Virus record (IMG/VR): IMGVR_UViG_3300035548_000056
Location: 1-35,199 of that record
From: a virus
Taxonomy: Duplodnaviria > Caudoviricetes
Strand: one strand, 5' to 3'
DNA: 35,199 nucleotides
Each line of letters begins with the position of its first letter. Within the stretch, counting starts at the first letter, position 1. The notes beneath the pieces are model-generated. The model saw only the letters and a list, made by a program, of their open reading frames with translations, ran no database searches and was not told the DNA's origin. A program made the translations under genes and the position numbers. Shown in pieces: positions 1,546-21,896 of the stretch.

Positions 1546-2673
1546 ATGGCAATAGTAACATTGACACAAACTGAAATAATGACATATTTACAGGAGCTCG
1601 CTCAAAGTGAAGATGCTTTTGGGAGTGACTTAAACGTGTCAGAAAATAGTGACTGGTATGGCCTAAATTGGCCGGTTGCTACTATAGCAAAATATGTATT
1701 AGATTATACCCAGAGTAGATTTGATAACCTGGAATTAAGAAAAGCAGAAGGTACTTATTTTGATGGTGGAGCAGCTAACTTTCTTCATTATAAAAAGATG
1801 CCAGATTACGCAATATCTTATCAAATGCAAGCTACTAATCCAACTATTGGAGCAACTGCAAGTGTTGGACAATTACAAATAAAAAAAGAAAATACTGATA
1901 TTGTGTATGTAAATACAGAAGCTATCACAGTAGATGAAGTCCCTTTTACATTTACAGCTAGATGTTCTACAATTGGCGAGATCGGAAATGCTGATATTGG
2001 AGAAGTCAATACAATACAGTCCACGCCTTCTAACTGGGGAGACACATTTACAAATATTGCAGCTTTTGAGGGCGGTCAAGACTTGGAAACTACTGAGGAA
2101 TCGCGGAAAAGGTTCTTCAATCAAGAATCAGAGGAAACTTTATGGAATGAAGACGGTGTATATGCTGAACTTATAAAATTAAGTGGTGTAAATTCTGTGA
2201 ATGTAGTTCAAAACAGAACAGATATAGAGGTTGATGGAGTAGCAAGAAGGGCTATTCATATTGTTGTAGATGGCGGCGTGACTAGTGAAATAATACAAGC
2301 TATATTCAGCAAGGTGTTGCCTTCTACTTATACCGTAGGAAGTGAAAGAGAGGATATAACCACATTAGCTGGAAACACTGTGAATATAGGTTTTGATAGA
2401 CCGACTGAGATTGATACAGACTTCTTAATTGAAACTGTACCTGCTTCTTATCCTACGACTTTCACAGATGCTGTAATCGAATATGGAGAACAGGTAAAAA
2501 TAGCTGGATATGTAACGACAAGCGACGCGGTTGACTATATAAAAGATAATGTTGACGAGGCTTCTAACTATGATGCTATAAATGTAACATTTAAAAAATC
2601 CACTGACACAGAATATATAAATGTAATAGCATATGGAAGTAATGAAAAACCAAACATGATTGAGGGGTCTTAA
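1546..2673 (+). CDS. baseplate J/gp47 family protein
   Basis: AEG.YFD, G.IGN, GG.D.ET.EE.R.R and V.V.GG motifs; 375 aa. Confidence 0.9.
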   Translation: MAIVTLTQTEIMTYLQELAQSEDAFGSDLNVSENSDWYGLNWPVATIAKYVLDYTQSRFDNLELRKAEGTYFDGGAANFLHYKKMPDYAISYQMQATNPTIGATASVGQLQIKKENTDIVYVNTEAITVDEVPFTFTARCSTIGEIGNADIGEVNTIQSTPSNWGDTFTNIAAFEGGQDLETTEESRKRFFNQESEETLWNEDGVYAELIKLSGVNSVNVVQNRTDIEVDGVARRAIHIVVDGGVTSEIIQAIFSKVLPSTYTVGSEREDITTLAGNTVNIGFDRPTEIDTDFLIETVPASYPTTFTDAVIEYGEQVKIAGYVTTSDAVDYIKDNVDEASNYDAINVTFKKSTDTEYINVIAYGSNEKPNMIEGS

Positions 2674-3253
2674 TATGAATGTATATGATATGTTTATAAA
2701 TTTAACTCCTGACGTGTATCTGAATGAAGAAAACAGCATGAAACTGATAAAAACTTGGTCAGATTTATTTGAGAAAATAACTAGTTACGTGGACAGCTTA
2801 CCCGAATACTTTTACATAGACACTGCACCTCTTGAGTATCTGAAAATATTGGGATCTAATGTTGGAAGGGAATATTCGGAGGGTGAGGATGAAGATGTTT
2901 ACAGATCAATTTTAAAGATAGCTTACTACAACTTCTTCATAGTTCCTAATCACAACAACTTACTGAGGGCTACAAAGGCAGTAACAGGGTTTTATCCAAC
3001 TTTAAAGCCACTATGGGAGGAAGAAGGAACAGACTTTGAAACTGATAACACTGATTCAGCTTATAAACTGAGTTATGACTTAACACCTACTTTTTCTACA
3101 GAAATATTAGACGAATTAGAAAAGTTCTACCCTGCAGGAGTAAAATTAATAAGGCCATATTTATATAAACTAACTAGCAAAGATTTGAAAGTTGCTGGTG
3201 CTATGTACAATTATGATGTTATACAAATAGGATTTAAAGAGGAGGTTATTTAA
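2660..3253 (+). CDS. baseplate protein (gp48 / P2 gpI-like); probable start at ATG 2675
   Basis: IDTA....L..LG..VG and PAGV motifs; follows baseplate J. Confidence 0.75.
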   Translation: MRGLNMNVYDMFINLTPDVYLNEENSMKLIKTWSDLFEKITSYVDSLPEYFYIDTAPLEYLKILGSNVGREYSEGEDEDVYRSILKIAYYNFFIVPNHNNLLRATKAVTGFYPTLKPLWEEEGTDFETDNTDSAYKLSYDLTPTFSTEILDELEKFYPAGVKLIRPYLYKLTSKDLKVAGAMYNYDVIQIGFKEEVI

Positions 3254-4422
3254 TGGCATTTCAAGATTTTGAACTTACAGACGATGGAGTAGCACTTTTA
3301 TCTCAAGTCCAAGCTGAGTTAGGAAGTTTAAATTTCACAAAAATGAAGATAGGTAACGGAACTTATACTGGTGATATAAAAGACTTAACAGATATAGTAA
3401 GCAGCTTTCATGAATTTGATGTGTCAAGCACAGGAGTGATGGATGATAATTCTGTCAAAGTACAAGGGACTTTTAACAACACGACTTTCGGTACATCTTA
3501 TGAGTTCAGAGAGATTGGTGTGTATGCAAAGCTAGGTGATACAGGGGCAGAAATACTATACTCTTACTCAAAAGATGAAACCCCAGACACTATTCCTGAC
3601 AGTTCTACTATATACAAAAGAACTCTCGATATAAGAAATTGTATATCAGACGTTGACACAGTCACCTTGACAGTAACAGAGATACAAGACAGATATGATT
3701 TTAATACGGTCGCAGAAATGCAAACAGCAGGTTATCTTACGGAAGGGGACAGGTGCAAAACTTGGGGATATTCTACACTAGGCGACAAGCTAGGAAATGA
3801 ATATGAGGTCGTAGCACCTTCTACAGGAACAGACGATGGATGGAACTATATAAATTTGTCAGGTTCAAGTGTCCAGGCCAAGCTATTATCAAGGGCTTTA
3901 ACTGATACAGGCTACACTGTAGATGGGTTCCTGCTAGGGAAAACAGAACTTGTATCTGATACACAATACATGGCTGGGGATGGATACTGGTGGAAACTAA
4001 AAAGTGACACAACTTCACCTTGTGTCCACGATACAACAGATACACCAGACAGCACATATTTAGAAAAAATAACGCATAAAGAAACTTTAGATAAAGTAGA
4101 AAGTTTATTTACAGTCAAAGAAATTTCCAACACTATTTACAATTCCACCGGGAATAAAACACTTTCAACTTCATTAGACAATACTATGAATTATATTTAT
4201 GTTTATGTAGGTTATGGTGCTGATAGCGATATAAAAATATGTAGGATTCCTTATGAATATAAATATAAAAGCTATTCTGTATATGGGGCTACGGCTTCTA
4301 CTAGTGAGACCGAAAGAATAGTTTTTCGTTTCATAAGTGATTCGATACTAGATATTTCTACATATGATGTAAGTGGAGCTGAACAGGTTAACATCGTAAA
4401 AATAGAACAAAGAAATATATAA
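3253..4422 (+). CDS. tail fibre protein (N-terminal tail-collar/baseplate anchor, variable tip after DKVESL)
   Basis: LT..G..L, F.KM.IG.G and FREIGVYAK....EILYSY anchor motifs; position after baseplate genes. Confidence 0.85.
   Translation: MAFQDFELTDDGVALLSQVQAELGSLNFTKMKIGNGTYTGDIKDLTDIVSSFHEFDVSSTGVMDDNSVKVQGTFNNTTFGTSYEFREIGVYAKLGDTGAEILYSYSKDETPDTIPDSSTIYKRTLDIRNCISDVDTVTLTVTEIQDRYDFNTVAEMQTAGYLTEGDRCKTWGYSTLGDKLGNEYEVVAPSTGTDDGWNYINLSGSSVQAKLLSRALTDTGYTVDGFLLGKTELVSDTQYMAGDGYWWKLKSDTTSPCVHDTTDTPDSTYLEKITHKETLDKVESLFTVKEISNTIYNSTGNKTLSTSLDNTMNYIYVYVGYGADSDIKICRIPYEYKYKSYSVYGATASTSETERIVFRFISDSILDISTYDVSGAEQVNIVKIEQRNI
4091..4108 (+). repeat. ATAAA-N8-TTTAT site (spacer GTAGAAAG, class D), inside tail fibre at DKVESL
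   Basis: ataaagtagaaagtttat. Confidence 0.8.
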
Positions 4423-4436
4423 ACTTTAAACTTTAT
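4419..4436 (+). repeat. ATAAA-N8-TTTAT site (spacer CTTTAAAC, class E) overlapping the fibre stop codon
   Basis: ataaactttaaactttat. Confidence 0.8.
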
Positions 4437-4449
4437 AAGGAGGCAACAA

Positions 4450-5109
4450 ATGCAAATATACATACAAAACACAGAAAAACAAACACTCAAATCAATACCC
4501 TACTCAGACATCTACAAAACTAGATATGATAACAGGGAATACACAAAACTATTCCCTTCATATGATTCTACACTTCACACTATAACAGTAGCAGACACAG
4601 AACCATGTCTAACAAACTATGAATTATACCTCAAAGGTGAATATACATTGGGTGAAGGAGAATACATAGAATCAGAATCCATTGCAAAGGCTGTAAAGCC
4701 ATCTAGCTACTATGAATGGGATTATGAGAACTTAGAGTATACTATCTCAGATGAAAAACTTGCAGAGTGGCAAGAGTCTATTGTAGATACACTAGGAGCT
4801 TACAGAGATACAATGCTAGCAACAGGGACAACTTTTGAAGATGTATACACAATTAAAGGAAGGGTGCAAGATTCCTCAGATGCTATGACTTGTTTCATAA
4901 CAGTTTCAAATGGACTACCTGTCACATGGCATTACTCAGATGATACAGGAAGTGAATTGGTATCAGAGGTTGCTAGAATGACAACAATCCTAACAGCAAT
5001 AGGAACATTCAGGAGTTCACAGTTTGACAGAGAAACAGAACTGAAAGCGATCGTGAGAGCTATGACAGGGGAGGAACTGCAAAACTTCGTACTTAGTGAA
5101 ACTTGGTAA
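4450..5109 (+). CDS. putative tail fibre assembly chaperone (DUF4376-like C-terminus)
   Basis: Follows the fibre; P...YEWD, R......G, F.RE.ELK and terminal W pattern. Confidence 0.65.
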   Translation: MQIYIQNTEKQTLKSIPYSDIYKTRYDNREYTKLFPSYDSTLHTITVADTEPCLTNYELYLKGEYTLGEGEYIESESIAKAVKPSSYYEWDYENLEYTISDEKLAEWQESIVDTLGAYRDTMLATGTTFEDVYTIKGRVQDSSDAMTCFITVSNGLPVTWHYSDDTGSELVSEVARMTTILTAIGTFRSSQFDRETELKAIVRAMTGEELQNFVLSETW

Positions 5110-5120
5110 AAGGGGGCTGA

Positions 5121-5450
5121 ATGGAAGAATTGAAATTAAAAGACCTAGAATATGTTGATGGATATAAGGAAGTCATCGAAGAATATAAGTACAAAGACAT
5201 AATTATACCAGAAGGTTTTATGTTTGACGGTGCAAGCATTCCAAAGTATTTAAGGTGGCGTTTTGATCCTTTTGATCCAAGATGGATAAGGGCGGCCTGC
5301 ATTCATGATAGGTTATATTATACACATGAAAAGCCTAGAAAAATTTGCGACAAAATATTAAGAGAAGTAATGCTAGAAGATGGTTCTCCTAAAAGAACTG
5401 CATGGGAATTTTATTATGGAGTAAGACTATTTGGAGGTTCGCATTATTAA
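5121..5450 (+). CDS. DUF1353 family protein
   Basis: IPEGF.FDGASIP, AAC.HD.LY and VRLFG motifs. Confidence 0.85.
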   Translation: MEELKLKDLEYVDGYKEVIEEYKYKDIIIPEGFMFDGASIPKYLRWRFDPFDPRWIRAACIHDRLYYTHEKPRKICDKILREVMLEDGSPKRTAWEFYYGVRLFGGSHY

Positions 5451-5467
5451 AGTAGGAGGTATTGTTT

Positions 5468-5599
5468 ATGTTTAGCTGGTTAAAAAGTTCTTTCGTCAAG
5501 GCTCTGATAAAAATAGGATTAAAAGCATATACAGAAAAGAATGACAATGAAATAACAAATTCTATAGTTGAAGAGATAGAAAAAGAACTAGACGAATAA
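5468..5599 (+). CDS. small hypothetical protein (43 aa, MFSWLKSSF...)
   Basis: AGGAGG RBS, ATG and a stop directly before a terminator; not in the ORF track. Confidence 0.6.
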   Translation: MFSWLKSSFVKALIKIGLKAYTEKNDNEITNSIVEEIEKELDE

Positions 5600-5628
5600 A
5601 AAAAGAGGGGCTTAGTCCTCTCTTTTTT
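5599..5628. terminator. bidirectional intrinsic terminator between convergent operons
   Basis: A-tract, gagggg...cctctc stem, T-tract. Confidence 0.8.
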
Positions 5629-5737
5629 GTAAAATACATTTTTTCAATCTGCAAACTACTATTGTTATACTTGTGTAACCGCGCCCCAGTATTTTAATTT
5701 GCGAGTTTAAACATTTATCACACTCTTTTTTTCTCAT
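5612..5737 (-). CDS. small Cys-rich hypothetical protein (41 aa, MRKKECDKC...)
   Basis: AGGTG RBS; CxxC and CxxxxC. Confidence 0.5.
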   Translation of the reverse strand: MRKKECDKCLNSQIKILGRGYTSITIVVCRLKKCILQKRED

Positions 5738-5755
5738 TCGCGCACACCTAACCTT

Positions 5756-5773
5756 ATAAAATTCTGACTTTAT
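5756..5773 (-). repeat. ATAAA-N8-TTTAT site (spacer GTCAGAAT, class B-like) right after the stop of 5774..5989
   Basis: Reverse strand ataaagtcagaattttat. Confidence 0.8.
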
Positions 5774-5989
5774 TTATAATTTTTCTAAGTCAGCTCTTTC
5801 TCTTATTAAATCTATTAACTCTTTTAATTTTTCTACTATGATCTCATCATTATTAATATCTGGATGTAAAGTACCTAAGCAACTACCCATTTTACCTTCT
5901 TTTTTATATTTCTTATAATTAAATCTAATATAAATTAAAGGTATACTAGTTCTTTTTTCAGTAAGTATATTTCTTAAAAATTTAAACAA
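5774..5989 (-). CDS. hypothetical protein (cassette cargo)
   Basis: GGAGG RBS, TTG start; bounded by two 18-bp sites. Confidence 0.7.
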   Translation of the reverse strand: MFKFLRNILTEKRTSIPLIYIRFNYKKYKKEGKMGSCLGTLHPDINNDEIIVEKLKELIDLIRERADLEKL

Positions 5990-6010
5990 TTTTCAAACCT
6001 CCATTTTCTT

Positions 6011-6028
6011 ATAAAGTCATCACTTTAT
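6011..6028 (-). repeat. ATAAA-N8-TTTAT site (spacer GTGATGAC, class A) overlapping the stop of 6025..6474
   Basis: Reverse strand ataaagtgatgactttat. Confidence 0.85.
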
Positions 6029-6474
6029 ACAATGAATAATACGCTAATAAAAGTCATAACATTCAACAATAATAAAAGGTCTCTAAGTTTAGTTAAACTT
6101 CTATTTTCATCATGTAGTAATTCATTTCGAAGCATAAAAACATCCCTACAAGCACAAACGTTTTCATACATCTCAATAACTTGCTCTTTGCTTTTTTCTG
6201 AACACTTCACATAAGATTCTTCTATTAACTCGGACGGTTCTTTTACTATACCGTGAACTTCTTCAAGTGTTTTATGAATATAGCACGACTTTCTTTTGTT
6301 ATCCTTCCTGAGATTAACATAGAGGTATTCATGATTTTTGAAGTTTTTAACTTGTGGAGTTAATACTAAGCCTTTTATATGTCTTCCATCTCTAGTCAGT
6401 CTATCAAGCGATCTAACTTGACCTTTGTCGTTTATTTGGTACAGCCCCTCATACCCAGGTATATCTTTATACAT
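6025..6474 (-). CDS. NUMOD4-domain protein, HNH part lost, hydrophobic C-terminus
   Basis: KDIPGYEGLYQIN..G.VRS NUMOD4 motif; no HNH motif after IHK. Confidence 0.75.
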   Translation of the reverse strand: MYKDIPGYEGLYQINDKGQVRSLDRLTRDGRHIKGLVLTPQVKNFKNHEYLYVNLRKDNKRKSCYIHKTLEEVHGIVKEPSELIEESYVKCSEKSKEQVIEMYENVCACRDVFMLRNELLHDENRSLTKLRDLLLLLNVMTFISVLFIV

Positions 6475-6704
6475 TTACTCCCCTCCTAGTTTATAAAAAT
6501 ACTCATCATTATCAAGCTTTACATTAAACCCATCGTTAAAAATCCACATTGAGCATACATCACGGTGACTAGATTCAACTCTTAACCACTATCACAGGCA
6601 CCACTTTATCCACAACATAAGGTCATCTAGTTCATCAAAACCAACTATACCAAAAGGATCTTTTTTTACTCTGCCATCCTCATAATACCAAGTACATTTT
6701 CCAA
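6475..6704 (-). pseudogene. probable decayed small ORF with internal TGA-TAG
   Basis: Frame LENVLGYEDG...KWCL**WLRVESS...GGE* fills the gap between neighbouring genes; upstream GGGGAG. Confidence 0.4.
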
Positions 6705-6729
6705 ACATTTTAAGCTCCCCCCCAGTTTT

Positions 6730-7188
6730 TTATAAGTATTCCACGCATCCACAAAACAACTTTTCCTCAGCTTTTCTTCTCCTAACTAGACCGTTTACAA
6801 CTTTTCCACCTGCTTTATTCCACCTTCTAAATTCTAGAGCTGCAGCTGGATAATCACCTTCTTTTAGCTTTTTAAGTAGAGTCGACTTCCTAAAAGCCGT
6901 AGAACCTATATTGTAGGTGAAAGATACAAGCGCATCAAATTGATCTTGAGATAATTTTACATCTACAACTTTATTTATTAGCGTTTGAAACCTGTTTATA
7001 TCCAATCTGAGCAATTCCTCTGCTCTTTCCACTGTGATTGTATCACCTTCTTTTACATGCCTGTGAGTGTCCTTGTAATAGGTTGTTCCAATTCCTATAG
7101 TCCAAATACCGGCACTGCATTGATAAGCTTCTAGCTTCAATCCTTCAAAATGTTTTATTAATTCAATACCTTTTTTACTTATTAACAT
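6730..7188 (-). CDS. lysozyme / endolysin, GH24 family
   Basis: FEGLKLEAYQCSAG.WTIG.G, QFDALVSF.YN.G and GLVRRR.AE motifs. Confidence 0.95.
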   Translation of the reverse strand: MLISKKGIELIKHFEGLKLEAYQCSAGIWTIGIGTTYYKDTHRHVKEGDTITVERAEELLRLDINRFQTLINKVVDVKLSQDQFDALVSFTYNIGSTAFRKSTLLKKLKEGDYPAAALEFRRWNKAGGKVVNGLVRRRKAEEKLFCGCVEYL

Positions 7189-7231
7189 TCTTCCCCCTGT
7201 TTACCACATTTTTTACAAGTCATAATCCCTC

Positions 7232-7744
7232 CTATTTTTTCGTACTGTCAAACTTACCTTCTCCACGCTCAGACTCAAAGGCTAACACTTCATCGGCTCC
7301 ACACTCTCTTATATCCATTTTAGGCACTTCTAAAAACATAACCTGAGCAATTGCTTTGCTTACTGGATAAACGATACAATCGCCTTTTTCATATACTTTT
7401 TCAACAAAGTCTGTTATATACAATATTTTTTCATTACAATTAGTAATGACAACATTCCAGATGCCTCTATAATTACTATCTATTACACCGCTACCGTATT
7501 TCATGCCTTTTATCCCAGTGCTTCCTCTCTCTTGAAATTGCGCATAATACTTTTCTGAGAAAACAGTCCTTATTCCGGTACTTAGTATTGCAGTGCTTAG
7601 CGGAGGTATAGACAACCAACCTTGGTGTTCTTCTCGGAACCATACAGGATTGACATAAAGGTCAAATCCTGCATCTCCATTTCTTTTGCTTAGAGGTTTA
7701 CACTCTTCATTCTCTCTAGAAAACAATAATTCCAACTCTTTCAT
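7232..7744 (-). CDS. dut: trimeric dUTPase
   Basis: DAGFDL, ERGS, GVIDSNYRG, IAQ and RGEG.F.ST motifs I-V. Confidence 0.93.
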   Translation of the reverse strand: MKELELLFSRENEECKPLSKRNGDAGFDLYVNPVWFREEHQGWLSIPPLSTAILSTGIRTVFSEKYYAQFQERGSTGIKGMKYGSGVIDSNYRGIWNVVITNCNEKILYITDFVEKVYEKGDCIVYPVSKAIAQVMFLEVPKMDIRECGADEVLAFESERGEGKFDSTKK

Positions 7745-7905
7745 ATTACCTCCTTGAACTTTTTACACGCCGGGCTCTCTATTGTGTTTCTTTCGTACTT
7801 CTCAGGGTGTTCATAGTAACACAATTCATAATGTAGGTAATCACAACAACATTTGCCAACTAATTTATCTGTAAGCCACATTTTTAAATCTATCCATAGT
7901 GACAT
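7741..7905 (-). CDS. small Cys-containing hypothetical protein (54 aa)
   Basis: AGGAGG RBS; stop overlaps the dUTPase ATG (ATGA). Confidence 0.65.
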   Translation of the reverse strand: MSLWIDLKMWLTDKLVGKCCCDYLHYELCYYEHPEKYERNTIESPACKKFKEVI

Positions 7906-7928
7906 TTTGTACCCTCCTATAATTTTAT

Positions 7929-7946
7929 ATAAATACCAAAATTTAT
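7929..7946 (-). repeat. ATAAA-N8-TTTAT site (spacer TTTTGGTA, class C) right after the stop at 7947
   Basis: Reverse strand ataaattttggtatttat. Confidence 0.85.
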
Positions 7947-8386
7947 TTAGATTTTTAAAGCTTCACGCACATCTTCGGCGGTATGCCCGTCAAACTCAAA
8001 TAATGCTCTTTCAGTTTTCTTACATTTAAATAAGTCCCAATCTTTAACTTTGTAGTGGTTAGATATTTGTCCAGTAGGTAACATGGCCACTACTATAAAC
8101 CATCCACCACCGAAACACTCCTCGCCATCAAAGTGTCTTAAAGACTTATGTACATTATACTTGCCTTGCTCATACCATTCATTAAACAAACAAGCATTAT
8201 ATAATTTCCTAAATTCATAAAGCTCATTAAAACTATGGTATCCATCAGATAACTCGCCACTTTCTATTTGTTTTTCAATCAGTTCTAGTTCTTTTTTTAT
8301 AATTCATAAGACTGTAAATGTAACATCATTTGTCTGTTTATTTTGAATCTTTTCCTGAGTTCGATTATAAATTCTTATCTAGTCAT
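7947..8386 (-). pseudogene. phage protein with SDGYHSFNELY...FDGH motifs, 5' end disrupted
   Basis: The conserved-looking frame extends upstream of the called start to ~8300; upstream ATGs (8307, 8386) are out of frame, and 8386 hits TAA at codon 4. Confidence 0.65.
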
Positions 8387-8502
8387 TAATCTTCCTCCGC
8401 GAGAACTATTTTCCATGCTTCTTTTAAAGTTATATCGCCATATTTACTTAATAAAATGTCTATAACGTCTAATTTATCAACTGTTGTAAATTTCTTTTTC
8501 AT
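8386..8502 (-). CDS. small hypothetical protein (38 aa, MKKKFTTVDK...)
   Basis: AAGGAG RBS immediately after an 18-bp site. Confidence 0.55.
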   Translation of the reverse strand: MKKKFTTVDKLDVIDILLSKYGDITLKEAWKIVLAEED

Positions 8503-8517
8503 AATTAACTCCTTTGG

Positions 8518-8535
8518 ATAAAGTTCTGAATTTAT
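8518..8535 (-). repeat. ATAAA-N8-TTTAT site (spacer TTCAGAAC, class B) overlapping the stop of 8532..8729
   Basis: Reverse strand ataaattcagaactttat, identical to 16182-16199. Confidence 0.9.
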
Positions 8536-8729
8536 ACAGGTATTTTTAATTCTTTGCAGATCTCTTTATAGTTCATTTCATCCATTAAAAATTTATACAA
8601 TTTAGGGTGCGTTTGCTTAAGTTTAATCATTCTGTTTTCATCGGCACCTTTATAGCAACCATACAAACAACCATAACATCCAGTTCTTTTATACCCGTGC
8701 TTTGTGTAAGCTTCGGATAAATTCATCAC
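8532..8729 (-). CDS. C-terminal fragment of a phage PAPS-reductase-like protein
   Basis: Y..GY.RTGC..C.YG......R...LK..HPK.Y motif without the N-terminal nucleotide-binding domain. Confidence 0.6.
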   Translation of the reverse strand: MMNLSEAYTKHGYKRTGCYGCLYGCYKGADENRMIKLKQTHPKLYKFLMDEMNYKEICKELKIPV

Positions 8730-9208
8730 TTTATTGTTAAATTATTTTTCACTTCAATGTGTGCCCCAGGGACTTCACGAGTATTTAACTCTTTTTTAAG
8801 TTCTACTTTGCTTATTTCATATTCTACCTTTAAAAAGTTATTAGGCACCTTGTCAGCGTCATCTATAACCACAGAAGAGGATTTCCTAAGACTAATATCC
8901 CCTATAGAGGTTTCTATTTTTTTTAGTTCCAACTTCTCCATGTTTAAAACAACATATTTTTTGAAGTTTTCGATAGCCTTTTGGCGTGCAATTCTCAAGT
9001 TTTTTAGCCTGGATTCTTCATTTTTTATAGTTTCAATGTCACTTTCAAGGTTTTTTATAACTTTTATTATCCCAGCACTTTTTTTTTCAAGTGCTTTTTC
9101 AAGTTCAACCTGAAGGGCAGACAAGGCGTCTGCATCCTCCAAAGTTTCACAACTATACATTAATTCCTCAAGTGCGTTTTCTTCATTTACGATATCATAT
9201 AATTTCAT
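8726..9208 (-). CDS. siphovirus Gp157 family protein
   Basis: MKLYDI start, coiled coil, RKSSSV.I.D...P and VPGA motifs. Confidence 0.88.
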   Translation of the reverse strand: MKLYDIVNEENALEELMYSCETLEDADALSALQVELEKALEKKSAGIIKVIKNLESDIETIKNEESRLKNLRIARQKAIENFKKYVVLNMEKLELKKIETSIGDISLRKSSSVVIDDADKVPNNFLKVEYEISKVELKKELNTREVPGAHIEVKNNLTIK

Positions 9209-9218
9209 ATTTTACCTC

Positions 9219-9581
9219 CTAAAATGGATAATCTTCTGTTGTCTCAGGTTCTTGCTGCTTCTGTGGTGCTTCCTGTGTCTTCTTACTGTCCAGGAACTCT
9301 ATCTGATCGACAATAACATCATAAGTGGTTATTTTTTTCCCCTCTACCTCGTACCGATTCATTTGAAGCCTTCCTTGTATTCCTAGTTTGCTCCCTTTCC
9401 TCATATACTCACATAAAAGCTCGGCAGTCTTTCCAAAAGCCACACAGTTTATAAAGTCCACATCGTCTTTTTTAAAAGGTCTGTCTACCGCTATTGAGAA
9501 CCTGCAGTAAGCTTTACCGCCTTGAGCATATTTTAATTCCGGGTCTCTTGTCATTCTACCTGTTAAGATTGTTAGATTCAT
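9219..9581 (-). CDS. ssb: single-stranded DNA-binding protein
   Basis: L.GR.TRDPELKY, DFINCVAFGKTAE and acidic DYPF tail. Confidence 0.96.
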   Translation of the reverse strand: MNLTILTGRMTRDPELKYAQGGKAYCRFSIAVDRPFKKDDVDFINCVAFGKTAELLCEYMRKGSKLGIQGRLQMNRYEVEGKKITTYDVIVDQIEFLDSKKTQEAPQKQQEPETTEDYPF

Positions 9582-10105
9582 TTTTTTACCTCCATATATA
9601 TTTTTTTAAGATCTTCTAACGACTTGTTTTTTAAAGTTTCTTTTGTATATTCATCGGTTAGTTTTATTATACTTCCAACCGCTGCATCTATTCTCTTATT
9701 CTCCTCTATAACGTGTTGTATATCTTCTCCGGTATAAAAACTCAAACCTATACCAAACATGGCTATATTCTTAGCCAAGCACCTCACGATTGCATCTCCT
9801 ATCTGCCGGCTATTTGGGTTAGGAACTGCCTTAAATTTATTGTCCATAACAGGGAGGAACATTTTTTTAGTTAGCCCAAATGCAGTGACTGAGGTTTTAA
9901 CAAAATGACTCTCCCCTCTGCTAAAACAAGGGAAACCATTTTCATCCTCTAGAACTTCATAAGTGGCAGTTACGTCTTGTTCAAGTAGCAACTTATAAGC
10001 GTTGGCCCAGCTGATATATTTTATTCCTTGGTAATTTTTTTCTGTGACTTTTAGAGTTTCCTCTAAGTTATAATTTTTAATAAATATTTCTTTACTGAAT
10101 TTCAT
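9578..10105 (-). CDS. single-strand annealing protein, Sak3/DUF1071 family
   Basis: Y.SWA.A, LPVMD and RCLAKNIAMFG.GL..Y.GED motifs; adjacent to ssb. Confidence 0.88.
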   Translation of the reverse strand: MKFSKEIFIKNYNLEETLKVTEKNYQGIKYISWANAYKLLLEQDVTATYEVLEDENGFPCFSRGESHFVKTSVTAFGLTKKMFLPVMDNKFKAVPNPNSRQIGDAIVRCLAKNIAMFGIGLSFYTGEDIQHVIEENKRIDAAVGSIIKLTDEYTKETLKNKSLEDLKKIYMEVKK

Positions 10106-10359
10106 TATTCACCCTCCTCAAAACTTATAGTCTCCCAGCAGGAAGCTTTTATTTTACTTTTTATTTCTACTTTTTTATATTCTTTCGTAAGTTTCTGTGC
10201 GTATCTAATGGCGTCATGTATTTCTCTGAATCCCTTCACTTCTTTTCTGACTGTAAACTTTTCGCCATCTATTATTTCATCTTCACATATAACCCCCACC
10301 TTAAAGTTGCAAGGCGGGGTTAAAAAGTCGGTCGTAATTACTGGATTATTCATCTTCAT
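10105..10359 (-). CDS. hypothetical protein
   Basis: Translationally coupled on both sides. Confidence 0.65.
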   Translation of the reverse strand: MKMNNPVITTDFLTPPCNFKVGVICEDEIIDGEKFTVRKEVKGFREIHDAIRYAQKLTKEYKKVEIKSKIKASCWETISFEEGE

Positions 10360-10643
10360 TCCGAGTACTCCTGGCTTGTGACTTCTTTATGTATTTTCTC
10401 AATCTGGTATTTTTCAAGTTCATATAGTTCGTCCTCTGTCCACCTAAAAGAGTGATCCAGTATATCAGAAACTAGGTTTTCAAAAGTATTTTTAACGTCT
10501 ATCTCCCAGGTTAAGCCGTAACCTTCAAGTTCGTTTACACTCTGTCCACATATACATTGATATTGCCTTTCGTAAGGTTCAGTATAACCATCTCCCCACC
10601 TTCTAGTTACTACCATATCTTTACCGCATAGATTACATATCAT
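10356..10643 (-). CDS. hypothetical zinc-ribbon protein (start MICNLCG)
   Basis: GGAGGGG RBS before the internal ATG; CxxC and CxC. Confidence 0.65.
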   Translation of the reverse strand: MICNLCGKDMVVTRRWGDGYTEPYERQYQCICGQSVNELEGYGLTWEIDVKNTFENLVSDILDHSFRWTEDELYELEKYQIEKIHKEVTSQEYSE

Positions 10644-10721
10644 TTTAACCCCTCCAAATAAAACCACTATTATTGCCATTGTTACCATTTCGAGTACCTG
10701 ATCTTTGTTTTCAGAAGGTGT

Positions 10722-10841
10722 TTAATTAGTTTTATCAACTTCATTCCTCCATTCACAAAAGTCTTTTACTGTTATTTTTTCTAATTCTAACCCTAATCTT
10801 TTTAAGTTTTTAACAATCGTGTTTAGTTGTGAAAGCTTCAT
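10722..10841 (-). CDS. small hypothetical protein (39 aa)
   Basis: AAGGAGG RBS, MKLSQLN... Confidence 0.55.
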   Translation of the reverse strand: MKLSQLNTIVKNLKRLGLELEKITVKDFCEWRNEVDKTN

Positions 10842-10855
10842 ATTAATCCTCCTTT

Positions 10856-10875
10856 GAGGCCCCGAAGGGCCTTTT
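10856..10875. terminator. hairpin / probable terminator
   Basis: aggccc-cgaa-gggcct followed by Ts. Confidence 0.55.
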
Positions 10876-10877
10876 AT

Positions 10878-11027
10878 TTATTTTACTGCATCTCTTATAA
10901 TCTCATCAAAAGCAATCTGCGATAATTCAGCTTTGCAAGAATCCATTGCTACACTGTAACCGAATCTTTTAATCGTCTTTCTTATAGTTTCTTTTCTTTT
11001 TTCAATTTCTTGTCTCGTAAATTTCAT
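10878..11027 (-). CDS. small hypothetical protein (49 aa), first gene of the leftward operon
   Basis: GGGAG RBS, MKFTRQEIE... Confidence 0.6.
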   Translation of the reverse strand: MKFTRQEIEKRKETIRKTIKRFGYSVAMDSCKAELSQIAFDEIIRDAVK

Positions 11028-11068
11028 TTTTCACTCACTCCCTTTTCGTGTTGCCCTTTGATACTTAG

Positions 11069-11165
11069 ATATTACTTTATTTTTTAAACTATGTCAACAC
11101 TTTTTATAATTGAATTATAATTAAATATTTTTAACTTGTATTTATATAAAAAAGTATGTTATACT
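11069..11165. promoter_or_regulatory. divergent sigma70-type promoters with a palindromic operator candidate
   Basis: Minus strand TTGACA-17-TAATAT (11097-11069); plus strand TTGTAT-18-TATACT with extended TG (11136-11165); TTATAATT-G-AATTATAA at 11104-11120. Confidence 0.7.
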
Positions 11166-11184
11166 TAAAATATAGAAAAAGGAG

Positions 11185-11376
11185 ATGAGAAAAATGGAAC
11201 ACCTAAATGAAATGTTATTCAGAATAAAGTATGAGATGAAGCAAAAGAATATAACTATCAAACAAGTGGCTAAAGAGTTGGGTTATACTCAAGCCACTAT
11301 AAGTAACTTACTAAACGGAAACTCCGGAACTTTTGACACATTAAAAAAAATTTTGAAATATTTAGAGACTAAATAA
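11185..11376 (+). CDS. Cro/XRE-like HTH regulator
   Basis: IT.KQVAKELGYTQATISNLLNG. Confidence 0.9.
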   Translation: MRKMEHLNEMLFRIKYEMKQKNITIKQVAKELGYTQATISNLLNGNSGTFDTLKKILKYLETK

Positions 11377-11414
11377 AGGAGGTTGCATAAATATAAAATT
11401 AAAGGGGATGTAAT

Positions 11415-14120: not shown

Positions 14121-14184
14121 ATTTTTTTATGGGAAATGAATTCAATTGTGGGTGTCTATTTTATTAGCTTTGACGCAAAAAAAA

Positions 14185-14235
14185 GATGACAAAAAGTGCT
14201 CTATATTTTATAAAAATAACGTTTTTTTTGTCATC
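14185..14235. repeat. 11-bp inverted repeat with AT-rich spacer
   Basis: gatgacaaaaa ... tttttgtcatc. Confidence 0.7.
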
Positions 14236-14251
14236 AAAAAGGGTGTGAAAA

Positions 14252-14542
14252 ATGATAGTGAAAATTAAATTTTTAAGAGAAGAATTAAGCGAATATTTAA
14301 GACTAAATCCAGAAGAAAAAACTCGTATTCATGAAAGAATAAAAGAAATATCAAAAAGGGTGTCTACTTATGAACATTTATCGCCCGGGGATGATTTTTA
14401 CTGCGGAGTACACATGTTAAAAAAAGCAATAAATAAAGATTTTGACGAGTGCTTATTTTACACACTTGAAAAAATAACTGAAGTTGGTAATCCAAAAGTA
14501 AAATTGGTGAGTTATATTGTAATGCCGTTTATATGTATGTAA
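14252..14542 (+). CDS. hypothetical protein
   Basis: ORF with RBS in the rightward operon. Confidence 0.6.
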   Translation: MIVKIKFLREELSEYLRLNPEEKTRIHERIKEISKRVSTYEHLSPGDDFYCGVHMLKKAINKDFDECLFYTLEKITEVGNPKVKLVSYIVMPFICM

Positions 14543-14551
14543 GGAGGTAGC

Positions 14552-14830
14552 ATGTATAAAACTCAAACCTTAGACGAGCTAAAAGACTTATACAAGGTAG
14601 AATTAAAAAAATACAATGCACAGGAAAAGTGGATTGAAGCTAACCCAAACAAGGCACATAAAATTATTAAAGGTAAGATTCCATTTAAGATGTTTTTAGA
14701 AACTCTAAGCAACTTAGGACAAATAGGTTATGAAATGGAAGATAGATTCAACTATATACAATCTACAGAAGAAAGGTTCGGGGAACTTGGACCTTTTCAG
14801 AAAGAAGTAATTGAGAGGTTAGGATTATGA
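14552..14830 (+). CDS. hypothetical protein
   Basis: AAGGAGG RBS. Confidence 0.7.
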   Translation: MYKTQTLDELKDLYKVELKKYNAQEKWIEANPNKAHKIIKGKIPFKMFLETLSNLGQIGYEMEDRFNYIQSTEERFGELGPFQKEVIERLGL

Positions 14831-15162
14831 AAATCATAAAAGGCACAGTCCTAAAAGATATAGCTATTTTTAATCATCAACGTAAAATAGTATCATGGAC
14901 AAAAGAAGAAGCCAAACTACCAGCCAAAACTTTTATGATAGAAGGTTACTGTCATATATTTGAGGATAAAATAGACTTCAAAGATCTGTATAAAATGTAT
15001 GGCTATAAACCTCCTGAGAAGCTCACAAAACAAAATAAATATGATATCCTAGCACTTACAAGGGATAGACATCAAGAAGGCACATTAAACCACACATACT
15101 GGAACTACTTCTGTGAAAAGTTTATGCCGTCACATTTAAAAAACCAAATAAAATTATTCTAA
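14827..15162 (+). CDS. hypothetical protein
   Basis: ATGA coupling to the upstream gene. Confidence 0.65.
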   Translation: MKIIKGTVLKDIAIFNHQRKIVSWTKEEAKLPAKTFMIEGYCHIFEDKIDFKDLYKMYGYKPPEKLTKQNKYDILALTRDRHQEGTLNHTYWNYFCEKFMPSHLKNQIKLF

Positions 15163-15174
15163 CAAGGAGCAATT

Positions 15175-15924
15175 ATGGAAAAAATTGTAAATGAAGTATT
15201 TAAAAATGTAAATGACCGTGAATACCGTGTATTGTCCTATGAAGGTAAAGAAAAGAAAGGTAAAGCATATAAGCACTTTTATAAAATACAGTTCCTCGAC
15301 ACTAAAAACGAGTATCTGGAAGAGCGAACCAAGGTCAGGACGTCAAAATGCAAAGACTTGCTGCACATCAAACTTATGAAGTCTAAAATTAAACAACAAA
15401 AGCTAAAAGAACGTGCAAGAGTTACGAAACGTGATAAGAACACTCTAAAACGCTTTGATTTTGATTTTAAGACCATTCTGTCACTCGACCTAAGTACAAA
15501 GTCGTCCGGCTGGTGTGTAGGCTCTAAAACGTGTATAAAGGCTTTTGGTTGCATATCACAAGATAGCAATAATTGGAGAGAAAGAAACTATAATACAATA
15601 GTTGAAATTGAAAAAATAATAAACACCTACAAGGTGGACATAGTATTTATAGAGGCAACCTTCCTTGGTTTATCCAGTTCCGTACTTGAGAAACTATGTG
15701 AGTTACGAGGTGGGGTATTTAAACTTATTATGGAGTATAACTGTGAATATGAAGTAATAATGCCTAATACCTGGAAACATTACCACAATTTAGGTGTAGG
15801 AAGACAAGAGCAGAAGGCGGCTAGTGTAAAAAAAGCTAGTTCAATCTTAAAAAGTAAAGTAAATGATGATGTAGCGGACAGTTGTTTGTTGTATATATAC
15901 GCAGTAAAAAATCTAATAAAGTGA
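15175..15924 (+). CDS. RuvC-like Holliday junction resolvase with N-terminal extension
   Basis: ILSLDLSTKSSGW, DIVFIE, P.TWK and DDVADS acidic motifs. Confidence 0.85.
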   Translation: MEKIVNEVFKNVNDREYRVLSYEGKEKKGKAYKHFYKIQFLDTKNEYLEERTKVRTSKCKDLLHIKLMKSKIKQQKLKERARVTKRDKNTLKRFDFDFKTILSLDLSTKSSGWCVGSKTCIKAFGCISQDSNNWRERNYNTIVEIEKIINTYKVDIVFIEATFLGLSSSVLEKLCELRGGVFKLIMEYNCEYEVIMPNTWKHYHNLGVGRQEQKAASVKKASSILKSKVNDDVADSCLLYIYAVKNLIK

Positions 15925-15933
15925 TGAATTTAT
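15916..15933 (+). repeat. ATAAA-N8-TTTAT site (spacer GTGATGAA, class A) containing the resolvase stop
   Basis: ataaagtgatgaatttat; 17/18 identical to the 6011 site. Confidence 0.85.
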
Positions 15934-15951
15934 TTAGAAAAGAGGTCATGT

Positions 15952-16185
15952 ATGAAACATACAATTAAGTTGATTAATAATTATAAAGAAATTTTAGAAA
16001 AAAATTATTCAGATGAACCAGAGTTGCTAGATAAGTACTTAAAACAATATAAATCATTAGAAAACATTGAGGTAGAAGTTGATAGTAAAAATATTTTTGG
16101 AGTTTTTAATGAACTATTTGAAATTAACGGTTATGAAAAACAGGTTTTCTGCACAGATTATTTTAAACTTTTAAAATCTAAATAA
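15952..16185 (+). CDS. hypothetical protein (cassette cargo)
   Basis: GAGG RBS; bounded by two 18-bp sites. Confidence 0.7.
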   Translation: MKHTIKLINNYKEILEKNYSDEPELLDKYLKQYKSLENIEVEVDSKNIFGVFNELFEINGYEKQVFCTDYFKLLKSK

Positions 16186-16199
16186 ATTCAGAACTTTAT
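16182..16199 (+). repeat. ATAAA-N8-TTTAT site (spacer TTCAGAAC, class B) overlapping a stop codon
   Basis: ataaattcagaactttat. Confidence 0.9.
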
Positions 16200-16232
16200 T
16201 GGGTTATATAAATAAAAATATTGGAGGCAAAT

Positions 16233-16640
16233 GTGAATATTATAAAAATAAAAGAATTGAAAGATCAGAAATATGATGAAAATTATGTTGCGATAGATGG
16301 TAAAGATATGGTCATCGAAATAGACGATCTCGGAGAAGAAATTTATTGGATTTAAAAAGAAGGTGAGATTGAAGATCTAAAAGTTCATCCAACTAGAAAA
16401 GAAGTGTTTTCTTTAGATGCTGATTCAATAGTAGAAAACTTTTACGATAGTGGTGTTATATTTGAAGATTGTGAATTTCCAAGAAATCGTACAAAAGAAT
16501 TACAGGAGCTTTTAGATAAATGGTGTGAAGAGGTTAAAGGAGAAGTAGATGTTTGTTACGAGATTTATTACGAAACTCTTATAGATGTATCTGAAATTAT
16601 CGAGGAAGTAAAAAGGAAAATCGAGGATGAAACCAGATAA
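16233..16640 (+). pseudogene. 135-codon acidic hypothetical ORF with one in-frame TAA (16353-16355)
   Basis: GGAGG RBS + GTG 16233 is in frame with ORF 16404..16640, with a single stop between them. Confidence 0.7.
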
Positions 16641-16654
16641 ATTTTGGAATTTAT
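16637..16654 (+). repeat. ATAAA-N8-TTTAT site (spacer TTTTGGAA, class C) overlapping a stop codon
   Basis: ataaattttggaatttat; 17/18 identical to the 7929 site. Confidence 0.85.
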
Positions 16655-16680
16655 AAGTAATTATGAGGGGGATTGCATAA

Positions 16681-16923: not shown

Positions 16924-16952
16924 TGTATTAAAAGAATATAATTTGATAATTG

Positions 16953-16978
16953 AAAGGGCCTAATTGCCCTTTTTTTTT
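16953..16978 (+). terminator. intrinsic terminator
   Basis: aagggc-ctaatt-gccctt + T-tract. Confidence 0.8.
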
Positions 16979-17007
16979 ATGTATAGTATAATATAAGTAA
17001 AGGGGGG

Positions 17008-17379: not shown

Positions 17380-17383
17380 TTTT

Positions 17384-19310: not shown

Positions 19311-19564
19311 TGGATTTCAAAGATCTTTTGAATTTACCTCTCGATGTCATTATATTAGGGACCTTGGTAATTGTCATCAAGTGGCTCTTACAGAAGGTAG
19401 ATGACCTTATACAGGATTCTAAAGAAGATAGATCAAGATATATAGATTCAATTAATAGCATATATAAAAAAATGGATAAGATGGATAGCATGGATAAAAA
19501 AGTAGACTCTATGGACACTAAAATAGACGTTATTTATGATATAATGAAGAGAGGTGATAGATGA
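19310..19564 (+). CDS. putative holin-like protein (one TM segment + coiled coil, BhlA/UviB-like)
   Basis: VIILGTLVIVIKWLL followed by a charged heptad tail. Confidence 0.55.
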   Translation: MDFKDLLNLPLDVIILGTLVIVIKWLLQKVDDLIQDSKEDRSRYIDSINSIYKKMDKMDSMDKKVDSMDTKIDVIYDIMKRGDR

Positions 19565-21351
19565 TGGCTTATGACGATCAGTCGGAAGAAGTAAACGGAT
19601 TATTAAATGAAGATGGGACAGTGACTACATATAGCGGGGAGGTGGTGGACTTGTCAGCGGCAACAGAAGAATATAAAAGGCGATTGCCACGAGTAAATAA
19701 ATTTTTAAACCCTGATGGTAGCGTGTCTACGTTTGGAGATGTGAGTGGTGTTAATTTCAAGCTAGACACAGGGTATGAAGACGGGGGGCTGTTGTTAGGG
19801 GTGACTCAAATAACATCAACAGAGATTGTATATTTGGCTGGAGATGGTGTGCATTATAAGCTCATAACTGGTACAACGGTTCCTTACACGCATGACGGGA
19901 CAGATGCTCCGAATATGACATATTTTGAAGAAGTTAGCTACAAGACGACTTCGGATAAATTAGAGAATTTACAAGAAGTTGTATTTAATACCGATAAGGT
20001 TTATGGTGTTGAGTTTAGTGGTAGTGACCCAGTCGGCACTAGAATATTAGATGCAATAGATATGGTAGCAGAGGTCGGGCTTGACGATTCTACAGTTACA
20101 AATGATTTTGATAGCGTGAGTTTTTTTGACAGACCTATTTGCTGTGGAACTCATGACTCAGATGGCAACTTCACAGTTAATGCCTACAAAGGGGATCCCG
20201 ACTTTGCAAGTGACGGAAGTAATGGAGAGGTGTTTTATGAATGTGCGCCTTTCTATTGGAATGAAAGTTACGACAGACCATGTGTAACTGCTAGTGCTAG
20301 AAGCGGATTCAAGCTTGCTCCAATGTTTAAAAATGATAAAAACAAGGTATATCTCCCTGTGTACTGGTTGTCAATGGTGGATGGAGTTGCGACTTCTAGA
20401 AGTGGGACATTTGGCACTTATAATTCAGTTAACAGGCATATGACTAATGCAAGAACTTACAACGCAACTAACGCACATATCGAGACTATGAAAGTGAGAA
20501 TATCTGAATATGTCTTGCAGTTAGTGGAGTTTGCCACAAAAGACTTTCAGACTGTCATGATGGGTGCTAGTTCTATGGCTTACAGTGATTTGCATGTGGC
20601 TACAGTTGCTGAAACTTCTGCAAATAGAATAATAATAAGTAACGCTTATTCGGGACAATTCGTGGTAGGGCAGACGATAGCTATAGGAAGTTCTCGTGGT
20701 TCAAATTCAGTCGCATCAGACAGGTTAATAACTTCTATAGACACTTATGATACTGAAAACGACGCTATCACATTCGACGGGGATGCCGTAGATATAACTG
20801 CAGGCGACGTAGTAAGCTCGCGACCATGGGTGAACGGTGCCCTGGATGTAGTCGAGGCTTCAAGTGGTTCAATAGGTTCTAATACTAGCGGGAAATATCC
20901 TTGCATTTGGAGAGGGAAGGTTGATCCATGGGGAGATGCCTTTTCCGGCTTATGTGATGTGCTTATTCAGAGAAATGGAACTGGAAGTGGCGAAGACCCT
21001 TACACTTACAGGCCTTATATCTTAGAAGACCCTAGGCTGTACTCTGGTGGGACTATAACAGGTGATTATATAGAACTTAATTACGACACTGCTCAGTCTG
21101 ACGGGTATGCAAAGACTCTAGGGAAAGACTCGAGATACCCTTATGCGTCGTTGACGAGTGAGGTCGGCGCGGCCAGCACTACTTATCTTAGTGGATATTA
21201 TTATTATCCTAGGTATGACGTGAGCGTGGTTTTTGCCGGCGGTGTCTGGTACAGCGGCCGGTTTTGTTCTCCGGTGTTCTTCGTCCTGTACGATTCCCCG
21301 TCTAGCTCGCAAATCAACCGTCTTGCCCGCCTTTTTGTTACCCGGGCTTAA
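19561..21351 (+). CDS. second fibre / receptor-binding protein with C-terminal CLec-type (DGR-target-like) domain
   Basis: Shares a ~69-aa domain with the tail fibre; WRG...PWG and terminal AGG.W..G..C...F......S......ARL motif. Confidence 0.8.
   Translation: MMAYDDQSEEVNGLLNEDGTVTTYSGEVVDLSAATEEYKRRLPRVNKFLNPDGSVSTFGDVSGVNFKLDTGYEDGGLLLGVTQITSTEIVYLAGDGVHYKLITGTTVPYTHDGTDAPNMTYFEEVSYKTTSDKLENLQEVVFNTDKVYGVEFSGSDPVGTRILDAIDMVAEVGLDDSTVTNDFDSVSFFDRPICCGTHDSDGNFTVNAYKGDPDFASDGSNGEVFYECAPFYWNESYDRPCVTASARSGFKLAPMFKNDKNKVYLPVYWLSMVDGVATSRSGTFGTYNSVNRHMTNARTYNATNAHIETMKVRISEYVLQLVEFATKDFQTVMMGASSMAYSDLHVATVAETSANRIIISNAYSGQFVVGQTIAIGSSRGSNSVASDRLITSIDTYDTENDAITFDGDAVDITAGDVVSSRPWVNGALDVVEASSGSIGSNTSGKYPCIWRGKVDPWGDAFSGLCDVLIQRNGTGSGEDPYTYRPYILEDPRLYSGGTITGDYIELNYDTAQSDGYAKTLGKDSRYPYASLTSEVGAASTTYLSGYYYYPRYDVSVVFAGGVWYSGRFCSPVFFVLYDSPSSSQINRLARLFVTRA
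19955..19972 (+). repeat. ATAAA-N8-TTTA(C) site (spacer TTAGAGAA, class D) at DKLENL
   Basis: ataaattagagaatttac; same protein position as the 4091 site. Confidence 0.7.
21226..21351 (+). other. DGR variable-region-like segment
   Basis: Only 10 A in 114 nt (21226-21339); scaffold codons are A-free and interspersed with NNC/NNT codons. Confidence 0.75.
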
Positions 21352-21431: not shown

Positions 21432-21758
21432 ATGAAAGCAGAAAGCACGATTATGCCCGCATCTCCATATGAGATAACGTTCAATGGAGACTACGCAGAA
21501 ATTGAATTTTTTACAAATATTACTGAATCGGAGGTGGAAGAGGGCGAGGCCGCCAAATGGGAGTATGACCACTACAGGTATACTACTAGATACAGAGACA
21601 CGTTAATAACAAGTTTAGATAACAATTACGACAGTTGGCTAGAAAAAGCTATAGAAAAAGAAGAAGCTGAAAACACTGTTGAAGAAACCGAGGCAGAGAA
21701 GATAGAAGAGTTGGAAAGTGCACTTGAAATACTTATTTTAGGCAGCTTGGAGGTGTAA
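21432..21758 (+). CDS. putative fibre chaperone (XkdW-like position)
   Basis: Acidic 108 aa with C-terminal T.AEKI.ELE.AL helix; lies between the fibre and an XkdX-like gene. Confidence 0.6.
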   Translation: MKAESTIMPASPYEITFNGDYAEIEFFTNITESEVEEGEAAKWEYDHYRYTTRYRDTLITSLDNNYDSWLEKAIEKEEAENTVEETEAEKIEELESALEILILGSLEV

Positions 21759-21759
21759 T

Positions 21760-21882
21760 ATGTACTCGATTTTGAAAAAAATGTATGTAGCAGGTAAATT
21801 GACAGAAACAGGGCTAGACAATGCTATTGCAAAAGGATGGATAACAGAGGTGGAAAAAGAAGAGATACTTGCCTCCTTATAA
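21760..21882 (+). CDS. XkdX-like small protein (40 aa)
   Basis: GGAGG RBS; MYSILKKMYVAGKLT...A.AKGWITE.E.EEI. Confidence 0.75.
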   Translation: MYSILKKMYVAGKLTETGLDNAIAKGWITEVEKEEILASL

Positions 21883-21896
21883 ATTCTAAAATTTAT
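21879..21896 (+). repeat. ATAAA-N8-TTTAT site (spacer TTCTAAAA, class E) overlapping the XkdX-like stop
   Basis: ataaattctaaaatttat. Confidence 0.8.

Follow-up and report, generated by a model that had tools for sequence, protein, structure and literature searches.

Tail-fibre mosaicism between unrelated phages is commonly ascribed to homologous or illegitimate recombination. A dedicated tip switch is known in the Rin shufflon of Bifidobacterium prophages, which the sections of PMC6109161 concerned with it describe as a constant N-terminus followed by a variable receptor-binding C-terminus, with crossover sites within the gene and right after its 3' end, a predicted arm-less tyrosine recombinase encoded next to it, spare tips, asymmetric 11-bp sites and inversion as the outcome. 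In Min (p15B), Gin (Mu) and Cin (P1), covered by the same sections, a fibre tip is also joined in frame at a recombination site, by serine invertases whose gene is linked and which act through local inversion. The pdif modules of Acinetobacter plasmids, according to the parts of PMC13141974 that treat them, combine many sites per replicon with an enzyme acting in trans and with partners set by spacer identity, and single modules are replaced between replicons through a cointegrate; their sites are built as 11-6-11, the XerC arm being distinct from the XerD arm (PMC13141974 and the corresponding part of PMC2731167).

Herein we analysed a phage record (IMGVR_UViG_3300035548_000056; the window, that is, the whole stretch of 35,199 nucleotides) that is circular at 35.2 kb, has a 127-nt terminal repeat and whose gene set includes baseplate and fibre genes, Sak, SSB and RuvC. 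Like Rin, it joins a constant N-terminus to a variable, presumably receptor-binding C-terminus and has sites within the gene and right after the 3' end, and the candidate enzyme is again predicted to be an arm-less tyrosine recombinase. Unlike Rin, it has no enzyme gene and no spare tip, its sites are palindromic with entry and exit spacers that differ from each other, and these sites are found 12 times over the genome and are common to unrelated phages. The multiplicity of sites, the proposed supply of the enzyme in trans, the proposed pairing by spacer and the replacement of single modules are all as in pdif. In contrast to pdif, the cores here are separated by 10 bp, the two arms of a site resemble each other, phages are the carriers and two of the sites are read in frame inside genes. 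The serine invertases, linked gene and local inversion of Min, Gin and Cin have no counterpart in the window, and an integron was not matched either (no intI-type PF00589 gene; sites that are 18-bp palindromes inside and between genes). The system is thus a pdif-module-like form of a Rin-type tip switch and a member of neither group, because spare tips, a linked invertase and the 11-6-11 spacing are all missing from it. A literature search over main texts (subscription journals and supplements lying outside it) found no published description of these sites, and the parts of PMC8138268 and PMC12386605 that it covered add nothing on them.

The palindrome ATAAA-N8-TTTAT is present in 11 exact copies, compared to an expectation of 0.43 ± 0.72 (30 simulations under a second-order Markov model); spacing the arms by 4-7, 9-11 or 13 gave no exact copy, and spacing them by 12 gave three. 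Together with the site at 19955, which has one mismatch (TTTAC), the total is 12, and the refined motif is ATAAA-[G/T]T-N4-A[A/C]-TTTAT, where a T adjoins the core in 23 of the 24 arms. This geometry and the conservation of the spacers fit a tyrosine recombinase site (inverted arms around an asymmetric spacer of 6-8 bp), the cleavage positions being putative, and the arm ACTTCGGATAA is identical at 10 of 11 positions to one pdif XerC arm in Table 1 of PMC13141974. A dif site was ruled out by the spacing, since the ATAA/TTAT cores are 10 bp apart and the dif spacing (gap 4) gave no exact copies. Spacing also ruled out loxP, in view of the features of loxP and rox. All 12 sites are accounted for and none heads a spare start-less tip. 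Genes for a tyrosine recombinase (PF00589), a resolvase (PF00239) or a reverse transcriptase (PF00078) were not found in the circular 35.2-kb record, in agreement with a preliminary description of this DNA, which had noted no linked invertase. The circular record also lacks an integrase and encodes its endolysin on the minus strand, in the midst of early genes, and four 27-nt repeats with TATAAT (at 16981, 25962, 26288 and 33667) look promoter-like. The runs in which most of the fibre region is present carry an oil-field metagenome label.

Two genes, both likely to serve host recognition, carry a site in frame. Fibre 1 (3253..4422, plus strand, 389 aa) consists of a tail-collar N-terminus, a shared domain and tip 1, comes after the baseplate genes, and matches the tail fiber phrog_7037 (E 4e-27) and, below the cut-off, PF12571 (E 0.0017). 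Gene 2 (19561..21351, plus strand, 596 aa) has a short N-terminus, the shared domain and tip 2, and matches the tail protein phrog_5302 and phrog_17147 from residue 131; it is likely a second receptor-binding protein outside the tail operon, and we call it a fibre from the family of its tip. The shared domain is a small beta domain of about 69 aa that ends in DKVESL in fibre 1 (3904..4107, plus strand, model pLDDT 66) and, by alignment with that copy, in DKLENL in gene 2 (19765..19971, plus strand). It had been put at about half identity, which is what we found: 49% over 70 columns (69-70 aa) for the domain proper, and 36 of 80 residues (E 5e-16) between residues 218-297 of fibre 1 and 69-148 of gene 2. 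Fold matches of the domain are weak (Z ≤ 4.0, to chitin-binding and tailspike N-terminal domains), and an Atlas match at 0.87, with PF02839 on 14% of members, is a lead rather than a firm fold. DKVESL and DKLENL are the sites 4091 and 19955 translated in one common frame (each D at codons 4090-4092 and 19954-19956), and the similarity does stop there as described, identity per ten residues being 6 before the motif and then 1, 1, 0 and 3. The junction of gene 2 is predicted to be helical, with low local model confidence.

Each of the two tips lies between an entry site and an exit site. In slot 1, the entry site (4091..4108, plus strand, spacer GTAGAAAG, core AGAA) is followed in frame by the coding part of the tip 1 cassette (4108..4422, plus strand), and the exit site (4419..4436, plus strand, spacer CTTTAAAC) holds the stop codon of the fibre and is followed by the ribosome-binding site of the next gene. 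Tip 1 has 104 aa, close to the ~105 anticipated, and gave no family, PHROG or PDB sequence match. The next gene (4450..5109, plus strand), a likely fibre assembly chaperone of DUF4376 type (PF14301, E 4e-4; phrog_2837), is outside the cassette; its C-terminal half (4754-5120) is swapped in the related record L003 and in contigs of X14 without any site. In slot 2, the in-frame entry site (19955..19972, plus strand, spacer TTAGAGAA, core AGAG) leads into tip 2 (19972..21351, plus strand), whose 459 aa likewise agree with the ~460 proposed. A 108-aa chaperone-like gene and a 40-aa XkdX gene (PF09693, phrog_134) follow within the cassette (21432..21882, plus strand), and the exit site (21879..21896, plus strand, spacer TTCTAAAA) holds the XkdX stop codon. 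The spacers had been called alike and the sites direct, and both statements stand in part: the spacers are similar, yet the entry pair and the exit pair each differ at 3 of 8 bases, and the entry sites are direct whereas exit 21879 with its flank matches exit 4419 best when inverted (28 nt, 89% complementary). A single crossover between the direct entry sites would be expected to excise 15.9 kb with lysis and replication genes.

The catalogue of what follows DKxExL, which had been put forward as a check, comprises 12 tip families in 19 proteins (P0041 and two fibres of an Ilyobacter polytropus prophage counted in; motif degenerate in P0011, P0012 and P0016). The family was gathered by searches with both heads and with a profile of the shared domain, for which 11 of 19 matches were members; the eight others, made of many short stretches, were dropped, and the two of these that were inspected (P0015 and P0020) are unrelated repeats. 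In a test set beforehand, homologues neither kept the same C-terminus across the motif nor diverged at random positions. For example, the heads of P0001, P0002 and P0003 are identical at 93-98% of 285 aa and each is followed by a tip unrelated to the other two, and P0006 and P0009 are 98% identical as far as DKLENL and different beyond it. Across seven homologue pairs, identity is 9-10 of 10 in the last ten residues through the motif and 0-3 of 10 after it, the unrelated tips beginning at the first residue after DKxExL. The reverse case, one tip behind unrelated heads and aligned from tip residue 1, is seen three times: P0041, which is without the 69-aa domain, has the tip of P0007 (94%) from the residue after DKVENL, and the two Ilyobacter fibres, with another upstream domain, have the tips of P0013 (fibre A) and P0009 (fibre B), at 74% each, beginning right behind KKLESL and QKVETL. 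One tip can thus stand behind unrelated heads, so that the joint is the site and not the shared domain, which is not required.

The same boundaries are seen in DNA. Compared to L003, the window is identical at 101 of 120 positions before the entry site, 18 of 18 within it and 39 of 120 after it, and at 32 of 120 before and 107 of 120 after the exit; homology runs to the final base of the entry site (4108), gives way to a different cassette of 323 bp and resumes at 4416. The L003 tip, like that of P0003, is unrelated to tip 1, as is that of P0002. The spacers of the two genomes agree at 8/8 and 7/8 bases, which makes this a module replacement between flanking spacers, seen also against Ilyobacter, with exit-site DNA covering three lineages (window, L003 and Ilyobacter). 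Contigs of X14, which may be the same strain as L003, have the same joint, and X14 depth over tip 1 falls from 61 to 7.5. The tips are therefore in-frame cassettes exchanged exactly at entry and exit, as the preliminary description had it. Within 3 bp of a site edge lie 6 of the 32 distinct breakpoints that we listed by hand from L003, L004, G002 and X14 (0.28 expected, P 3e-7), a list that leaves aside contig ends, X14 joints repeating L003 or L004, two weak G002 matches, one further X14 entry, the joints and loose ends of X3, X10 and X11, and 93 further loose ends; a joint at 5769 was taken as 5774, five bases fitting on either side. The remaining 26 are off-site, so ordinary mosaicism also goes on. 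Away from the sites, the helicase gene (901 aa, 11415-14120) is replaced in L004 by a 638-aa gene, with off-site breakpoints and X14 depth almost nil. L004 also lacks 17053-19043, a methylase block that is an insertion not bounded by 18-bp sites; at 18697-19062 a DUF6996 gene beside the Dam-type methylase is apparently cut short at about 19043.

Tip 2 has the fold of a DGR variable protein. Its model (pLDDT 89) had one significant fold match, the C-type lectin-like TaqVP (PDB 5vf4; E 8e-8, TMq 0.37), and it shares with that protein adenine-codon variation towards the C-terminus (21238..21327, plus strand) and a downstream hairpin (G/C hairpin at about 21352-21378, 3' of the variable region). 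Against templates taken from two other phages, the variable region differs at 11 of 13 adenine-bearing codons and 1 of 17 others (L009), and at 11 of 11 and 3 of 19 (L007). It is identical to that of P0050 at 19 of 30 positions, compared to 386 of 400 for the bodies. Both L007 and L009 have the same target with template, reverse transcriptase and, after the latter, a gene similar to the 108-aa one, and the 18-bp site is absent from both records. A complete DGR differs from the window in exactly these parts: a self-search for a template repeat returned the variable region only, a reverse transcriptase (PF00078) is absent, and the target sits in a site-bounded cassette. Tip 2 is thus an orphan DGR target packed in such a cassette, and from its family it would bind a receptor. 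The tip-2 family is widespread and is elsewhere fused to collar (PF12571), BppU (PF10651) or collagen domains; the motif precedes the tip in 7 of 74 rows (its own cluster and P0008) and in none of 67 other members, and therefore the site was added to the tip. A second, unrelated tip resembling a DGR target (PF03781) is present behind the site in P0007 and P0041, where differences concentrate in the last 36 residues.

The four-base cores recur in distant genomes. G002, a 63-kb fragment that otherwise hardly resembles the window, contains seven sites, six of them with a core that the window also has; the same is true of 6/6 sites of the Ilyobacter prophage (chance 0.06 each in both). In Ilyobacter, the entry core of fibre A is AGAA and its exit 18-mer is the same as the one at 4419; the entry core of fibre B is AGAG, found also in G002, and its exit has the spacer of 21879. 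Because Ilyobacter keeps these two distinct entry/exit pairs, each of the two genes is a slot with a pair of its own. The eight remaining sites of the window form A-B and B-C slots, each around one small gene. An A-B slot lies at 5756..6028 (minus strand; sites 6011 and 5756, 71-aa ORF), with an X14 joint at the edge of 5756. Full A-B-C series lie at 7929..8734 (minus strand; sites 8717, 8518 and 7929, ORFs of 65 and 80 aa), with an X14 loose end at 8717, and at 15916..16654 (plus strand; sites 15916, 16182 and 16637, ORFs of 77 and 78 aa), where L004 homology ends at 15933, the last base of site A. The A-B-C order is common to the window and G002, and B-C is found in the Ilyobacter prophage. 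From site 8518, 144 bp are 98% identical to G002; this piece, which ends at a site on one side only and to that extent counts against the site-specific exchange proposed below, is the 3' part of the 65-aa ORF (8535-8729, minus strand), which matches part of the PAPS-reductase family and has a possible GTG or ATG start inside site A. A further caution is that the entry spacers are also constrained by the protein, the slot-marking base being a synonymous Glu position (GAG in 122 of 384 Glu codons). Nor are the slots absolute, since the P0009 tip family is also found behind the P0016 head, and in one X14 contig a domain like that of fibre 1 is joined to a site of slot-2 type (loose end at 4073). 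Heads can thus move between slots, apparently when the crossover falls upstream of the site. Pattern scans of viral contigs for entry and exit sites returned G002 and G003 only; G004 has two motif copies with another spacer, G005-G007 have none, and L001 was rejected as a chance match.

The replacement of tips at the sites, with the two entry/exit pairs recurring in the two fibre genes of the Ilyobacter prophage, points to two slots, each with an address of its own, whose tips phages likely trade with one another. The explanation that we favour, and hold to be probable, is that the tips are cassettes bounded by 18-bp palindromes and exchanged between phage genomes slot by slot, by a tyrosine recombinase acting in trans. 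Two phage genomes in one cell would recombine at matching entry sites into a cointegrate, which would be resolved at matching exit sites, so that a tip is swapped without loss; a cointegrate followed by resolution is also the route proposed for the replacement of single dif modules in the relevant part of PMC13141974. The central 4-6 bases would act as an address (AGAA...TTAA for slot 1, AGAG...CTAA for slot 2, GATG-CAGA-TTGG for the small-gene slots) that blocks deletion inside one genome, the enzyme would come from an arm-less family supplied by a co-resident prophage, and the swap would alter receptor specificity. We infer recombination here from sequence comparison, and the enzyme is a candidate.

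Linker-mediated mosaicism occurs in lambdoid phages, and one alternative, which we regard as unlikely, takes the sites as conserved linkers, perhaps relics of a shufflon, that annealing by Sak, SSB and RuvC crosses through short homology with no current site-specific recombinase. The window indeed has these three genes and no recombinase, most breakpoints are off-site, and a crossover 17 bp before the site would fit the X14 loose end at 4073; against this, the pairs P0007/P0041, Ilyobacter A/P0013 and Ilyobacter B/P0009 have almost no upstream sequence in common (0-3 of 10 residues), palindromic arms and non-coding exit spacers are kept as far as a marine-mud prophage, and plain homology needs no palindrome. 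That the 18-mers bind a repressor or nucleoid protein, with DKxExL a helical neck where domains happen to swap, would suit a motif that is palindromic, often intergenic, enriched on the Ilyobacter chromid (22 copies versus 2 controls) and predicted to be helical at the junction. It is the most improbable of the readings, because DNA homology stops with the last base of a site whether or not that site is coding, the motif is missing before 67 other members of the tip-2 family, and the spacer cores fall into few classes whose order is kept across unrelated phages.

The preliminary description had the two genes of one genome trade tips, and an intragenomic switch of this type, with fibre 1 and gene 2 exchanging through their entry/exit pairs and gene 2 as the store, would account for the common frame, the similar spacers and the X14 contig in which a fibre-1-like domain meets a slot-2-type site; some pdif positions, in the part of PMC13141974 on them, also tolerate single spacer mismatches. 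We consider it very doubtful and the claim unsupported, given that none of 69 tip-2 homologues (327-1043 aa, a range that includes the expected 744-aa hybrid) had the head of fibre 1, that the spacers are unlike at 3 of 8 bases and slot-specific in Ilyobacter, and that gene 2 has its own start and N-terminus. Contigs over 2600-17400, with gene 2 outside, point the same way: record 23 of X3 covers this stretch without a difference, and no joint leads from 4108 to elsewhere in it save the X14 tip replacement. Over the same stretch, contigs of X3, X10, X11 and X14, which drop rare variants, showed no inversion joint at a site.

For exchange in trans between phages, the search for an enzyme leads to Fusobacteriota. 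In Fusobacterium, Funu1, phiRTG5 and the SB029 prophage have a homologous xLENL/xLNNL junction at the same position of the fibre, inverted start-less tips and an adjacent PF00589 recombinase of the candidate family. Shufflon-like loci at the tail tip, with inverted start-less tips, were examined in four GenBank records of Fusobacterium phages (KR131710.1, 34773-37748; OR492272.1, 31416-34027; NZ_CP077186.1, 25293-28230; ON464760.1, 38715-39965). They differ from the window in the inverted tips, in a recombinase beside the fibre (3 of the 4 records examined) and in half-conserved sites, which match the right part of the palindrome only. In JD-Fnp2 the site is perfect and a single tip is inverted, but no homologue of the candidate recombinase was found. 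The literature search found no published account of these loci. In the Ilyobacter prophage, ILYOP_RS10110 is a 45% identical homologue without an arm domain, located 1.0 kb from site C and adjoining a second, arm-bearing integrase. From this position and homology, the arm-less tyrosine recombinase family of ILYOP_RS10110 is the best candidate enzyme. Among viral contigs the candidate matched only its own prophage, and the 63-kb G002 fragment yielded neither a PF00589 nor a PF00239 gene. Ilyobacter and Fusobacterium phages are among the top matches for the N-terminus of the fibre (weak tblastn); these and the shared sites make a member of Fusobacteriota the likely host, with no relative found in scans of genome contigs.

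In contrast to mosaicism as commonly understood, the joints here are fixed, palindromic and address-coded, and common to phages without other homology. Dedicated exchange of tips between phages becomes directly testable, with ILYOP_RS10110 a named candidate from a cultured strain; it would suggest a way for a phage that has no DGR to carry a tip diversified by one, and would offer a natural set of recombination sites that do not cross-react. More tentatively, and with slightly less than even confidence, we suggest that Fusobacteriota phages share one address-coded pool, with one trans-acting recombinase, at least four slot types defined by spacer pair, and the same site ending repeats on a host replicon. 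If so, a 35-kb myovirus, a phage of more than 63 kb and a marine-mud prophage would draw tips, some of them DGR-diversified, and small accessory genes from a common pool. Of the 19 motif copies that the Ilyobacter chromid (NC_014633.1) has beyond the prophage, 13 share core CAGT and form the end of intergenic repeats of one family, which gave no Rfam match in four loci. The three repeats read to both ends (350-520 bp; 223699-224077, 230347-230870 and 549533-550042) have a second, degenerate and inverted site, and are possibly a non-autonomous element using the same recombinase. A small recombinase, ILYOP_RS12465, is encoded near one chromid repeat.
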